NCBI GenBank assembly: GCA_054600435.1 | Contig: BAAIJX010000021.1 | Coordinates: forward strand, 186,001-250,000 | Origin: Neophaeotheca triangularis | Lineage: Eukaryota | Length of the DNA stretch: 64,000 nt | Direction: 5' to 3' | In this document: positions 18,360 through 28,052 of the stretch, one piece after another | Layout: every line of letters starts with the position of its first letter | Position numbering within the stretch: the first letter of the stretch is position 1 | The notes under the pieces: generated by a model | What the model saw: only the letters and a program-made list of their open reading frames with translations | Told to the model about the DNA's origin: nothing | Database searches by the model: none | Translations under genes and position numbers: made by a program

Positions 18360-19892
18360 TCCCGCATTATAACTCTCTCCAAAAGTCCTGTCGCACGCCA
18401 AGGCTCGTGCAGAGAAACCTAGCTTCACCGAATTTTGGTGAGAGCTAGCTCTATAGCTTGATTGTCGGTATATAGCTCTACTTTGAAGCTATAATATTAT
18501 ATGCAAATCATTAGTATAGCCTTTTAGAGGGTGTTGCTCCGGTATAGCCCCTAAATCATTTAAACTGCATAGCCCTAGAGTGCCTAAGGCATCTTCTTAG
18601 GCTCCTAATAGCTCCTAACGGACCCGTATACCTAGCAAACGTGCTTTTAAGGCTAGTCAAACTCTTATAAGCCCTCCTACTACTACAAAACATAGTAGAA
18701 AGGCTAGGAAAGGTAGAGGAGGTGTAGCTTTATAGGGTCGCCAGATAGGTAGGGGAGGTGTTAGAGGTATTAGAGGTAGTAGAGGTAGTAGAGGTACCAC
18801 TAATCTAGTCGTGATTTCATCGCAACTAGGGTCGTCTTAGGAGGAGTAGGACGAGGAAGAGAAGGACAAGGCTCTAAGGTCGTCACTACTACCTAGTAAT
18901 CAGCAAAATTAGTAGAGTTAGTAATAGAGCATAGCCACTATGCCGTTATCACCTATTAGTCGCTCTAAACGAGGCCTTCCTCTAGTCGATAAATCTAGTA
19001 CTAAGTCTAGTAGTACTAAGTCTAATAGGCCCCCCCCTAAGAGACTAGCTAATATACGACTAAGTGGTGACCTTAGACTACCGCTCTTAAAGTACCTAGA
19101 GGAGGCCTTCTTTAGTACTAAAGAGAGGTATAGAAACGGTATAATAACTACTAGCGAAGAGCGTAAGAACAACGAGGGTATTAAGGTAGAGAGGAAGAAG
19201 GACGAGGCGAGACTAGTATGTCTTATAGAGAAAGACTATATCTAGCGTAAAGAATAGGCTAAGAAGGAGGCTTATAAGGCCACTAGTACGGATGTGTCTA
19301 GGAAGGATATTATACCGCCGCGTAAGAAGGGGAAGGTTACTTAGGAGTATACGGAGCAAGTAGCTCGTAAATAGTCCTTAAGGAATAATGATCTATTAGA
19401 GGCAGTTGCCTTTACTACGACCTTCTCCTTATAGTACGGCAATAAGACAGTAGCTAACTATACTAAAGATTACGAAGGTCTAGTTACTCTTAGGGCCGTA
19501 GGTGTTACTACCGAGTAGGCAAAAAACCGTGCGAAAGAGCGAGGTCTATCGCTAATTAACTAGTCAAGTCTAGTTATACAAGGTTACCTTAGGGGTAAGA
19601 AGTTCAACCGGCTATATAAGCTTAATAAAGAGGGTGATTTTAGAGGCATATTGGACAGTCTAGTAACGAAATGTCTTAAGGGAGCTTAGCACTATACTAT
19701 AGTGTTTACCTTCGAGAGCGATAGGATCGAATCTTCGTAGGTACTACTAAAAGGCACTATAACGGAGGCCGCAACTACTCGTCTTAGTAAATACCTTGTT
19801 AACGAGCATGTCCGAGGTGATTATAGTAACTAGATCTAACTACAATAGCTATATACCCTACCAAATTGCCGTAATACTAGACGGTACTACTA

Positions 19893-20335
19893 TGTTACGG
19901 GATTTCCCGAACACAGGATTTCATTGGTTAGTATGGAAGGATCAAGAGCTAAGGAACGCAGCGTCTCGACGAAACGCGGTCGAGCTGCATCCTGACCACA
20001 CTTCGGCCGAAGACTCATGCCATGTCTCGCTTAGCTCGCGTCGAGACAGTCGACCTCGCTCGACTACTCGACGGGCGAGATGGCGAGCAGAAATCGACTA
20101 TCTCGAGAACGAGACAGTCGAGACACACGAATCTCCTTTGTATTTAGGTAGCGACATTTCCTAGATAGAGATGTGTGTTCAACTCATGTTACAATCTTAC
20201 TGAAAGGTCTATAGCGACACTTCACGTATCTTTGAAATCCTTACAACAAAGGAAACACCCTTACTAGCCTTCTTCGATATCTCTCCTCTTCCGCTACGAG
20301 CTCTACCCGTGAGACTACCTTGTAGGATCGCAACA
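19893..20335 (+). repeat. 5' LTR (443 bp)
   Basis: TGTTACGGG...GATCGCAACA; direct repeat of 26544-26986. Confidence 0.97.
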
Positions 20336-20375
20336 CTTTGAACACCCTCTAGGAAAGAGAGATCAATAGGCAAGT

Positions 20376-22595
20376 ATGTCCCTATCCGATAACCGAGACG
20401 CAAGCGTCGCCAGCACCTAACGAGGAGTATCGACTATGACAACTAACAAGGTTGCCAAACCGGACTACTTCTACGGCGAACGCAACAAGCTAGACGACTA
20501 GGTCAACCAGATAATGATGTTCTTTCTCATGGAAAGCGTTAGTGAGCAGAAGCAACCTCTCACTACTACTTCTTTCCTTCGAGGAGAAGCTTAACACTAG
20601 ATCCGCCCTAAGCTTACGGATTTCCTTATAGAACGAATCGACCCTGAAGGACTGTTCTCGAACTGGAAGTCTTTTGTCAAGGTCATCCGCAACGTCTATG
20701 GATTGAGCAACGATCGACAGGTTACTATCCGGATAATTCAGCACCTTACGCAGAAAACGTCTGCCTCTTAGTACACCTCTAAGTTTCAGGAGTACTCAGC
20801 TAAGACTAGCTGGGACGACAATGCTCTCATGACTATGTACTACCGAGGACTCAAGGACAACGTGAAGGACGAACTCATGCGCCACGGAGGCGATTAGTTA
20901 ACTCTCCCCGGAATGATCAAATCGGCGATCGAAGTTGACGACGCGCTCTACGAACGGTTTATGGAAAAACGCCACACTAGACAATTTCGCGGACGAACTA
21001 GCTATGCTACCGGCAGCCGGCCTGTCGGTCAGCAACGTCGCGATCCTAATGCGATGGAACTCGACTCTACGCAACAGCGTCCTAGGAAGGGCAAGGATGG
21101 AGGACGGGGCAAACAGAACGCCCTAGGCAAGAAACGGAACGGACCGGAATGCTACAACTGCCACAAGATAGGGCACTATGCACGAGACTGCCGTAGGAAA
21201 CAGATGCGCCCACGACAGGAGGTTAATGCGATTTTGACCCGAAAGGATAACGACTCTCCTACCGATAAGAGCCACGGAGCTTACGACATCACCGGAACCT
21301 ACGAAGAACCGGACCACAACGAACTTCACTAGAGGTTTTGCAAGAGGGATTACTATTTAGTACACAAAAGTTAGGGACTAGTGACTAACGGAATACCTAT
21401 TAGACCTCGGAAGGAAGTGAACGTCATCGAACGAGTTACCCTAAAGTCCGGAACGGACGCGCTGATCGAGCAATACTAGAAACTTAGGGAGTTTCACGAT
21501 GACTTGGTTAATCATGAGGAGTGGACTAAAGAACACTTCAACCTCATAATCCAAGTAGCCGATCAGATGGCAGATCTTAACGACAGGATCAAGGCCACAG
21601 CAGACGAAGAATCTGAGTAACTACGTAAGCCTTAGAAGGAACTCAACATAATGTCAAGACGCTAACCACTATAGCAGTCAAGGGGCGACGGCAACGTAGC
21701 CCGAGGAAGGTCCCTACCTCCATTTGCATAGGAGGACGACAAACTGTAAGAAAACTAAGCACCATCACCGATGATAGCACCACTAACACCCGGCTCAGAC
21801 AACGAAGAAATATCTCAGACACCGGAACTCACTGCAATCGTACTAACACCGGAGATTAGCCCCTTAAGACTATCGATGCCTCTAGAAATTCCAGAATCTC
21901 GAGAAGACACGACAGTGATGGATTCCGAAGACGACTCCGAATACGAATATACCGACGACGAAGAACCCGACGACAACGATACCTTAGAGTTCATTGTGGA
22001 AGGACCCGCACTAATCAAGAAGATGGTCACCTACATCGCACGATCGTACGAAGAAGTGTTCCTAAGGATCTAAGGCAAACGACGCTTGGAACCCAACCAG
22101 TTTGAAGCCATGCTCACGTAACTACGAGCAATGTTCTAGGACTACCGAAAGGTCGCCGTCGAGTATAACGCCGCCACCTTTGTCTAGGATAGGCTACTAA
22201 TGGGAAGCACTTTCTATAGAGAAAACGGCTACATTACGCCAGATAGGATACGGATCCTATACACGATGAGACAACGAGTCAAGACAGTCAAGAATCGTTA
22301 TAGAGAATTCTAGCTCATCTAGGAGCAGTAGAGAGAAGAAGAAATCACGCTACAAGAAATGAAGAAACAAGTACAGGATTCCTTAGACCAATAGACGATA
22401 GTACCATGTGAAAAATTTCTACTACTAGTCGACCGCAAGATGATCCTCGGACACGTTAAAGTAACCACACGAGGACCTATCACCACACACGCAATCCAAG
22501 GAAAAGTCACGATCAAACCTCGGGACGGACCCCTTTACTGGGAAGTCTCTCTCGAGACAGCGGATTCATCCACCTACTTCTCAAAAAACGAATAG
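20376..22595 (+). pseudogene. gag (about 740 codons) with RIP stops
   Basis: KPDYFYGER capsid start, YYRGLKDNVKDEL, DPNAMELD, zinc knuckle CYNCHKIGHYARDC; ATG 20376, ORF pieces 20913 and 21771 and TAG 22593 share one frame. Confidence 0.9.
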
Positions 22596-26453: not shown

Positions 26454-26543
26454 CGTAAGATGACGAGAGAAGAGAGAAGTGGGGAAAGGAGCTATTTACT
26501 AAGTTACGGACCGCTTAGGACAAGCGCCCTAGGAGAGGGATAG

Positions 26544-26986
26544 TGTTACGGGATTTCCCGAACACAGGATTTCATTGGTTAGTATGGAAGGATCAAGAGC
26601 CAAGGAACGCAGCGTCTCGACGAAACGCGGTCGAGCTGCATCCTGACTACACTTCGGCCGAAGACTCATGCCATGTCTCGCTCAGCTCGCGTCGAGACAG
26701 TCGACCTCGCTCGACTACTCGACGGGCGAGATGGCGAGCAGAAATCGACTATCTCGAGAACGAGACAGTCGAGACACACGAATCTCCTTTGTATTTAGGT
26801 AGCGACATTTCCTAGATAGAGATGTGTGTTCAACTCATGTTACAATCTTACTGAAAGGTCTACAGCGACACTTTACGTATCTTTGAAATCCTTACGACAA
26901 AGGAAACACCCTTGCCAGCCTTCTTCGATATCTCTCCTCTTCCGCTACGAGCTCTACCCGTGAGACTACCTTGTAGGATCGCAACA
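26544..26986 (+). repeat. 3' LTR (443 bp)
   Basis: Direct repeat of 19893-20335 with about 8 transition differences. Confidence 0.97.
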
Positions 26987-28052
26987 TACTAGTAGTGTAT
27001 AAGCAATATCGAAGACAATCACTACCCTATAATAGTAGACGCCTTAATGGACTAGGCTAATAAGATTAAGACTAGTGAATTAGCTCCTAATCGCATTAAT
27101 TAGGATGTTATGTATAAGCTCTAACGAGTAAGGGAGCGGTTTCGAGGCTATAAGGCAGTAGTAATACTACCTATAACGGCCTCTTAACCGTCGACATCGT
27201 TAACTACGCTAATTATTAACACACATGTCTTTCTTAGTGCTTAAGACATAATAAGACACTTCTAAGAAGCTAGACTAGGTGCTCTACTAGTAACTATACC
27301 TCACGCTCCTTAACTAGCCTTAAGTCCTTTATATATTCACTCCCTATAGACAGACACTACGCTAGAAGACTAGGTATTAGACTTTTTCGTTTAGCTTAAG
27401 AAGCAGCCTAGCTTTATTAATAGTTAGTCAGTTCTCACCGAAATATTAGAGCGTTTAATAGACGAAGGCTACGAGCTTAATGTAGTAGCAAACATAGGGC
27501 ATATAGAGTAGGTTAGTAATAGTCTAAAGGCGGGTTATCGAGCGCGGGTTCGACGGATGTGTCATAAGTATAGGGTAGAGAAGCGAGCTTCACTAAATCG
27601 ATCACTACCGTCCGACCTATTAACGGATATGGACATTTAGATATACATTAAATTTAGCGAAAGAAGGGCTTCAATTTGATATCCTATTTATTACAAATAG
27701 TTGTATATTGTCATAGTAGTACCGTCGCAAAGTTAGTATATGCCTCTATCTTATACTAAACTTAGTAGATGAAGTCTAAGTTTATAGTATAGGAGTGTGG
27801 CCACGTGACGCGCTAGCGAGAGATACTAGCATCTCATTCGCTAGGAGATACGGCCCGTAGAGCTACATACCTCCATAAGCACCTCCGCAATATTAAACCC
27901 TATTAGGTCAACCTAGTATTATTACTTTGCTACACTATGCCACTAGAACTATACCGCCTTCTGTCAATATAACATATAGGTTAGATAGAGCATGTAACGA
28001 GCTTCAAAACGAGGGTCTATTTGTCATAATCCGTCCATTATAGCCTACATAA

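Follow-up and report, generated by a model that had tools for sequence, protein, structure and literature searches.

The 64,000-nt stretch of Neophaeotheca triangularis DNA analysed here (the window) carries an autonomous Tc1/IS630-type DNA transposon of about 3.8 kb, which belongs to a fungal lineage and has two convergent genes, and of this two-gene architecture we are highly confident. Both ends, the TA duplication, an empty site, the two reading frames and the recurrence of the second, accessory gene beside divergent transposases were observed directly. A Gypsy retrotransposon was later inserted into the transposon, RIP killed both genes, and the present copy is dead. With the Gypsy included, the full transposon occupies 18370-29275, which is wider than the span of 18544..27679 given in the preliminary description. 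Its features are as follows.

18368..18369, no strand: left TA target-site duplication, from the empty-site contig and sequence context
18370..18540, + strand: left terminal inverted repeat, 171 nt, from pairing with the right repeat
18544..19892, + strand: accessory gene, 5' part, RIP-broken, 58% identical to P0004 residues 1-442
19888..19892 (left copy) and 26987-26991 (right copy), no strand: 5-nt Gypsy target duplication TACTA, from the sequence
19893..26986, + strand: nested Ty3/Gypsy chromovirus-type retrotransposon, from gag, zinc knuckle, SH3 and chromo domains
19893-20335 and 26544-26986, + strand: Gypsy LTRs, 443 nt, 8 differences
26992..27640, + strand: 3' part of the accessory gene, up to the stop that coincides with the end of the homologue, 68% identical to P0004 residues 445-654
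28053..29093, - strand: Tc1/IS630-type DD34E transposase gene, RIP-broken, from a PF13358 match and 68% identity to P0008
28824..28880, - strand: probable 57-nt in-frame intron of the transposase (GT...branch...AG), with a gap here in P0009 and P0011
29108..29275, - strand: right terminal inverted repeat, 168 nt, from pairing with the left repeat
29276..29277, no strand: right TA target-site duplication, from the empty-site contig and sequence context

The two inverted repeats are identical at 126 of 168 aligned positions. In another strain an empty site with one TA was found (run X2), where a contig of single-copy depth joins 18367 to 29276. The accessory gene, on the + strand, starts 3 nt inside its repeat and the transposase gene, on the - strand, 14 nt inside the other, with their stop codons 412 nt apart. 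The convergent arrangement claimed earlier is borne out, and the repeats flank both genes. Run X4 has no coverage of the element or its flanks and is uninformative on it.

The transposase had been read as a 347-codon DD34E enzyme. The frame (29093-28053) does hold 347 codons, including the stop, and PF13358 (DDE_3) was matched with E=2.8e-19, at 69.8 bits against a cut-off of 28.6. The D-34-E spacing is present; the E is now a K in the RIP copy and is still an E in P0008. The frame also spans the 57-nt intron-like stretch, and the mature transposase would therefore be of about 327 aa.

The second frame becomes continuous after the Gypsy and one TACTA copy are removed: 18544-19892 and 26992-27640 are then in register and give 665 codons plus a stop. 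That it rejoins across the Gypsy, as had been proposed, is proved by the intact homologue P0004 (654 aa), which aligns to both parts. The long frame stands; the earlier size of about 680 codons does not, as the TAG at 27638-27640 coincides with the end of P0004, 13 codons short of the earlier endpoint at 27679. The first codon is ATA, at the place where P0004 has Met. Opposite the Q, W or R residues of P0004 lie 28 of the 32 aligned stops, and C>T/G>A changes alone can explain 138 of the 242 residue differences (on average 27 in one half and 10 in the other after shuffling). Word-index searches with P0004 as the query matched only itself and P0005; another candidate, P0006, was rejected as a chance match to a repeat protein.

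It could be argued that the frame is due to chance or is part of a separate nested element, as a Gypsy is already nested here and stop counts do not single the frame out: on the minus strand, the 5' part has a frame with equally few (22). The frame is nevertheless accepted as real because the intact homologue aligns along its whole length. A terminal-repeat search around the accessory gene found no separate element ends. The segment is also kept in other copies, so that neither of the outcomes named earlier as refuting was seen: a degraded one on contig C31 of the same genome and a Gypsy-free one in another strain, with both genes on a single 3,363-nt contig. A further, intact copy is probable, as P0004 and P0008 probably share one 3,643-nt contig, a pairing made solely from the equal length (3,643 nt) of the contigs that hold them. 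The chance or separate-element reading is largely refuted and we consider it very improbable.

On sequence comparison, the accessory gene is not a one-off capture. Homologues convergent to DD34E-type transposases within unrelated inverted ends occur on contig C84 (L025) of the same genome and at 4 of 12 fungal-clade metagenome loci, with 2 further probable cases, which upholds the two-gene Tc1 lineage proposed earlier and gives a positive answer to the check suggested there, co-occurrence inside inverted repeats. The TIR-bounded two-gene elements, of 2.8-4.2 kb and with differing ends, are that of the window, C84 (L025), L037, L041, L054 and L056. Their transposases are 24-59% identical pairwise; domain order and orientation are alike in all six. 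The accessory protein has an identity of 15-20% between lineages. Leave-one-out profiles regained each held-out lineage (iE 4e-12, 2e-13/9e-12, 5e-7 and 2e-12), and P0004 scored 55 bits against a profile built without its own lineage, where 500 shuffles reached at most 7.0. The RIP-damaged window copy was not recovered by a profile built without the window lineage. A profile match of E=2e-25 was set aside, since its target alignment contains the window row and is hence not independent. Outside the fungal-like clade, the full accessory profile had no match at any of 68 metagenome loci, and it had none at 74 viral-contig loci. The link of the L028/L029 type to the family is weak (E=5e-4; E=0.2). 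Pfam gave no family for the accessory proteins: 2 of them and the L028 ORF had no match at all, and nothing convincing came up in two further sets of 3 and 8. The accessory gene is not obligatory in the clade, because L027 is a complete single-gene relative of 1.4 kb, and the members L026, L030 and L032 have no accessory gene within kilobases.

Such single-gene relatives are consistent with another origin, in which the second gene was transduplicated from the host and travels as a passenger, the origin put forward for the Osmo-CC element of Pyrenophora tritici-repentis (Ptr). Unnamed fungal protein clusters resembling P0004 (0.89-0.91, 66-223 members) and family fragments lying without a nearby transposase on contigs C1, C2 and C15 also point this way. 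However, the six elements share their domain order and orientation despite unrelated ends and deeply split transposases. Further, the frame is maintained beyond synonymous saturation: between L041 and L037 it is kept with pS at 0.76-0.87 and pN at 0.39-0.45. Every accessory-family match in the N. triangularis genome is broken, and no intact host paralogue was found there. A passenger gene is therefore judged improbable, and of the three origins or roles offered earlier (regulator, anti-silencing factor or captured host gene), recent host-gene capture is the least supported.

The accessory protein is divided into the following predicted parts.

18544..19398, + strand: N-terminus of low complexity, with Gly-rich and acidic stretches and a basic patch of PPKR type, plus a charged helix, from composition and the P0004 model
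19399..19722, + strand: predicted beta-grasp (ubiquitin/PB1-like) domain, from P0004 265-383 and the like-placed domain of L041
19846..27130, + strand: Cys/His module W-x-C-x4-C-x-N-x3-Y-C-W...H-Y-P...W, split by the Gypsy, end approximate, from P0004 and cross-lineage alignment
27359..27583, + strand: predicted SAM-like five-helix domain, 3' of a conserved S-S-P motif, aligned across all lineages

The acidic tract and the basic patch described earlier were recovered at the N-terminus, but the RG tract of the window copy is Gly-rich, not RG-rich, in the closest homologue and may partly be a RIP product. The charged helical region agrees with a long helix at 155-233 in the AlphaFold model of P0004, whose overall pLDDT of 45 makes it otherwise unusable. 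The Cys/His motif that had been predicted by de-RIPping is found unchanged in intact P0004, and the module probably binds zinc; no structure match covers it, and no fold is assigned to it.

For P0004 265-383, the Atlas structure match had a TM of 0.42 by target, below threshold. The like-placed middle domain of L041, an intact relative, gave beta-grasp matches of Z 4-5.5 in a structure search and has a beta-beta-alpha-beta-beta-alpha-beta topology in its model (pLDDT 70-83); the two domains are equated by placement, not by sequence, and the alignment of this region across lineages is unreliable. Among the L041 matches were streptokinase (Z 5.5, rmsd 4.6, 110 aligned) and the PB1 of NBR1 (Z 5.0, rmsd 3.4, 82 aligned). 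Superantigen and streptokinase matches were rejected as a sign of a toxin, since they reflect only the common beta-grasp fold. The SAM-like domain of L041 best matched tankyrase 1 (Z 6.5, rmsd 2.3, 62 aligned). SAM is named in 25 of the 50 rows listed, but helical domains of other kinds score up to Z 6.0, and those of helix-hairpin-helix type (eIF2-alpha, RAD51, NusA) are on a par with many SAMs. Atlas SAM clusters were at 0.87-0.89. Pfam SAM_1/SAM_2 had no match in the accessory proteins scanned, and a PDB profile search gave the ASK3 SAM at no better than E=1.4. Altogether the L041 model has three ordered domains, predicted to be beta-grasp (PB1-like), the Cys/His module and SAM-like, with moderate fold scores of Z 5-6.5, all below 8.

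SAM and beta-grasp fold types are both found in Ste50/Ste11. A host-manipulating module can be imagined, in which the protein mimics fungal MAPK adaptors of the Ste50/Ste11 type, or acts as an addiction factor, and biases mating, cell fusion or spore survival; RIP is active only in the sexual cycle. The Ste50 SAM is among the L041 matches (Z 5.2, rmsd 3.2, 68 aligned), PB1 domains of MAPK-pathway proteins match its middle domain (Z 4.0-4.8), and the divergence between lineages is rapid. Yet the domain order is unlike that of Ste50, Pfam and PDB profile searches gave no sequence match to such proteins, the basic patches are of nuclear type, and no catalytic or toxin motif was seen. Manipulation of the host is accordingly an unlikely function.

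By analogy with MURB or VANC, we moderately favour the view that the accessory protein is a nuclear scaffold, kept by the transposon and of benefit to it. Each long inverted repeat would act as promoter and leader for the gene starting just inside it, a layout that is not general, because the accessory gene of C84 begins about 485 nt inside its repeat. The protein would be brought into the nucleus by its N-terminus, which is basic and disordered, would oligomerise via the beta-grasp and SAM-like domains, and would use its Cys/His module, probably with zinc, to hold nucleic acid or chromatin. The scaffold so formed on the DNA of its own element would be multivalent and could raise transposition, the likeliest routes being shielding from host silencing (VANC-like) or transpososome assembly and targeting (MURB-like). 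In the RIP-damaged window copy no distinctive repeated motif was found. A predicted complex of the transposase P0008 with P0004 265-645 scored 0.01 and is uninformative.

The opposite effect on transposition, a self-limiting regulator, has also been considered: the protein, or convergent transcription over the short 3' gap, would damp the transposase, keeping copy number low and host defences unprovoked. The convergent genes with the 412 nt between their stops, and the few copies of the element in the N. triangularis genome, agree with this, and SAM and PB1 polymers are able to sequester partners. On the other hand, a pure repressor would be easily lost through cheating copies, and a two-ORF element that looks related by its description has 46 copies in P. 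tritici-repentis in the accessible text of PMC3538342. Self-limitation is thus regarded as rather unlikely, and the nuclear scaffold stays the favoured reading.

Like other Tc1-like DD34E elements (IS630-Tc1-mariner, PF13358), the window element has a DDE_3 transposase with a winged-helix N-terminus, the D-34-E spacing, TIRs and a TA duplication. It differs in its 3.8 kb against the usual 1.3-1.7 kb or so, in its repeats of about 170 nt and in the extra convergent 665-codon gene; a single gene is usual, not strict, for the class. Long Tc1 elements with extra DNA include Ant1 of Aspergillus niger. Another oversized fungal Tc1, Tc1-OP1 of Ogataea parapolymorpha, is described in the accessible text of PMC9977792 with 169-nt repeats and an extra protein part of unknown function, which forms a single ORF together with the transposase, whereas the window element has a separate gene.

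The earlier statement that Tc1 elements normally have the transposase as their only gene holds as a rule, with exceptions in ciliate TBE/Tec and in the 3.4-kb Ptr element. According to the accessible text of Manning et al. 2013 (PMC3538342), the latter, a Tc1/Mariner 'Osmo-CC transduplication' element, has two coding regions between its repeats, 31 of its 46 copies are full length, a similar pair lies on an Alternaria BAC, and the second ORF was interpreted as a captured host domain. It resembles the window element in size, in being a fungal Tc1/Mariner and in its two ORFs. PF08946 was found in none of the accessory proteins scanned here with Pfam, unlike the Osmo-CC ORF; the Ptr element, likened by description and not by sequence or orientation, may or may not belong to the same family. 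The TBE/Tec elements, again likened by description, are DD34E Tc1/mariner transposons with extra ORFs under selection, one for a zinc-finger protein, in the available part of Dupeyron et al. 2020 (PMC7325037); they have three ORFs and are restricted to ciliates, in contrast to the two genes and fungal range here.

Long repeats and an accessory gene are similarly combined in MuDR/VANDAL, which belong to another superfamily, with a MULE transposase and an 8-11-nt duplication in place of DDE_3 and TA. The genes mudrA and mudrB are convergent and expressed from the repeats. In the part consulted of Dupeyron et al. 2019 (PMC6446971), mudrB is needed for integration and vanC for anti-silencing. No match to MURB or VANC, in sequence or in family, was found for the accessory protein. 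In the literature covered, which includes the accessible text of PMC5751038 and PMC13004909 and leaves most subscription papers and Repbase outside its scope, no conserved second gene family or SAM-bearing accessory is described for fungal Tc1 elements.

Tc1/mariner elements are the most frequently horizontally transferred transposons in fungi, according to the accessible part of a recent report (10.1101/2025.06.16.659975). They are treated as a one-gene class, and a conserved accessory gene redefines one branch of it; the published 'transduplication' may then be a built-in part of its element. It is conceivable, and we suggest it only tentatively, that this is a widespread, undescribed fungal Tc1/IS630 branch with a dedicated accessory protein, built of beta-grasp and SAM-like domains around a new Cys/His module, which may either counter the silencing of repeats by RIP, methylation or RNAi or serve as a scaffold for the transpososome. 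If so, it would account for a large family of fungal proteins now called 'hypothetical'. The accessory protein is also a candidate for how Tc1 elements cope with fungal genome defence. The window copy, being dead, matters only as a marker; its intact relatives are P0004/P0008 and L041.

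Across 18.4-29.3 kb, an AT shift and RIP marks were observed (TpA/ApT up to 2.9, against ~0.7 in the flanks). The ends of the Tc1-like element were defined by comparing four public runs against window 16500-31000. In X2, a run of another strain, a contig of single-copy depth links 18367 directly to 29276 with one TA remaining, and the element is therefore bounded at 18370-29275. The following features are present.

18368-69 and 29276-77: TA target duplication flanking the element
18370-29275: Tc1-like element, bounded by inverted repeats; site empty in X2
18544-19892 and 26992-27640, plus strand: second gene, 665 codons, in register across the Gypsy
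19893-26986: chromovirus-type Gypsy with TACTA duplication; LTRs of 443 nt with 8 differing sites
29093-28053, minus strand: transposase gene (DDE_3, E=2.8e-19)

The inverted repeats are 171 and 168 nt long (126/168 positions identical), and the element without the nested Gypsy measures 3,807 nt. The chromovirus is high-copy in the species (summed depth ~50x the flanks in two runs) and is more weakly RIP-marked than its host element. The transposase has D-34-E spacing, the E now being K, and its winged-helix matches are weak. A 57-nt stretch at 28880-28824 is probably an intron, as it is GT-AG, in frame and missing from two intact relatives. The nearest intact protein, P0008, is 68% identical.

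In the preliminary description, a convergent plus-strand gene of ~680 codons was proposed to rejoin in register across the Gypsy. The long frame and its junction (19892 to 26992) are backed by a full-length intact homologue, while the length is corrected to 665 codons, ending at 27640. Four of 1.84 billion representatives matched the X-read middle part of the gene. The top match, P0004 (654 aa, E=7e-74), covers the whole frame at 58% and 68% identity in two parts, and also contains the Cys/His motif earlier predicted by de-RIPing the window sequence. The damage is RIP-like: Q, W or R stands opposite 28 of 32 aligned stops, and C>T/G>A alone explains 95/177 and 43/65 differences from P0004, with shuffle maxima of 41 and 18.

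The second gene is part of the Tc1-like element. P0004 and P0008 each come from a Logan contig 3,643 nt in length, close to that of the element; presumably it is the same contig for both. In X2, another copy, free of the Gypsy, has the two genes together on a single 3,363-nt contig. On contig C31, a degraded, non-RIP copy retains the left repeat along with second-gene remnants. This copy is circularly permuted: each half (233769-234835 and 249255-250093) breaks off at one shared point of the transposase (window ~28420), and 14.4 kb of gene-like DNA near a contig end lies between their facing outer ends. On C31 there are also a truncated transposase relative that retains a vestige of the right repeat (L024:5074-5817) and, apart from it, an element of 1.1 kb whose inverted ends are 120 nt long (L024:118-1252).

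An unrelated element on contig C84 (L025:3926-8112; 4,187 nt, 104-nt near-perfect repeats, transposase 32% identical) likewise has a second gene, of 574 codons, convergent and in the same layout; RIP-marked fragments of this gene lie on C1 and C2. Among the best 80 of 565 confirmed transposase loci from metagenome contigs, 12 group in one clade with the transposase of the window (support 0.989; tree of 89 rows, none excluded). A fungal origin of these loci is suggested by their introns, RIP and neighbouring genes such as HET. Four (L037, L041, L054, L056) are complete elements, 2.8-3.5 kb long, bounded by repeats and carrying the convergent gene. Two (L028, L029), whose ends are not visible, probably carry a distant form, a type weakly linked to the family (E=5e-4 in one comparison, E=0.2 in another). 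L027 is a complete single-gene element of 1.4 kb, no second gene was found within kilobases at L026, L030 and L032, and L033 and L042 are too short to judge. The second-gene profile had no match among the remaining 68 loci or among 74 loci from viral contigs. The proposed two-gene lineage is supported by recurrence beside transposases inside other inverted ends, and it is very improbable that the frame is a nested element or a product of chance.

With leave-one-out profiles of the C-terminal half, every held-out lineage was recovered at iE <=5e-7, save the RIP-damaged window copy; its intact homologue P0004 scored 55 bits, against <=7.0 for 500 shuffles. L041 and L037 have both retained the frame, with synonymous sites saturated between them. 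Identity among the transposases of the carriers is 24-59%, and they are not grouped together within the clade, where deep nodes are weak; the second gene diverges faster than the transposase. Four second-gene protein queries found only broken copies in this genome, some of them without a nearby transposase; as the first pass of the search is loose, an intact distant paralogue may have escaped it. On C15, broken L028-type fragments (L200:4627-5283, L201:4550-4651) have no transposase within 5 kb, and one adjoins a MITE-like element of 750 nt whose inverted ends measure 136 nt.

The window element shares the transposase, repeats and TA duplication of Tc1-like elements and differs in how many genes it has. 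Tc1/mariner elements with several genes are known from ciliates (PMC7325037), and accessory genes are well established in Mutator elements (PMC6446971). Manning et al. 2013 (PMC3538342) describe a 3.4-kb fungal Tc1/Mariner element whose second ORF, Osmo-CC, was interpreted as a capture. Like the window element, it is a fungal Tc1-type element with two genes, and it may or may not belong to the same family; PF08946 was not found in the present second proteins. A passenger host gene, as proposed for that element, is an unlikely explanation here, the frame being retained past synonymous saturation. Searches of the available literature yielded no report of a conserved family of accessory genes, or of the domain set below, in fungal Tc1 elements.

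No Pfam family was matched by the second-gene proteins. In the AlphaFold model of the L041 relative (408 aa, 8 rows, mean pLDDT 64.8), disordered linkers connect three ordered domains. Residues 21-130 (beta-beta-alpha-beta-beta-alpha-beta) match beta-grasp folds including PB1 domains (Z 4-5.5), and P0004 residues 265-383, in a separate Atlas model, come near a beta-grasp family, under the naming bar. Residues 332-407 best match SAM domains, that of tankyrase at Z 6.5 (rmsd 2.3 over 62), and SAM is named in 25 of 50 structure-match rows; Atlas SAM clusters at 0.87-0.89 and an ASK3 SAM match (E=1.4) are in line with this. As all Z are below 8 and helix-hairpin-helix domains score alike, both predicted assignments stay at the level of the fold. 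Between these two domains, the Cys/His module may bind zinc, judging by its C-x4-C...C...H pattern.

The starts of the window second gene and transposase lie 3 and 14 nt inside the repeats; starts are just inside also in L037 and L041, not in C84. This position points to convergent transcription of both genes from the repeats. A protein that a selfish element has kept for so long, that some relatives lack and that changes more quickly than the transposase is more in keeping with a modulator than with a catalytic subunit. A self-limiting repressor is given a slim chance. The SAM-like and PB1-like matches might recall a host-signalling mimic, which, like an addiction factor, is considered improbable. 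The reading leaned towards is a nuclear scaffold that would act on the DNA of the element itself, to counter silencing or to serve transpososome assembly and targeting. It could be built from the two folds of oligomerisation type, the putative metal-binding module and the disordered basic tail.

The element is inserted ~115 nt upstream of a CENP-S/MHF1 gene (PF15630; region 29276-29816). This insertion is polymorphic between strains and could alter the expression of the gene. To the left, an open frame of 669 codons at 15666-17675 (minus strand) matches no Pfam family. Further right, a 3,980-codon frame at 50556-62498 (minus strand) ends in UBM and HECT domains, and is presumably a Tom1-type ubiquitin ligase.
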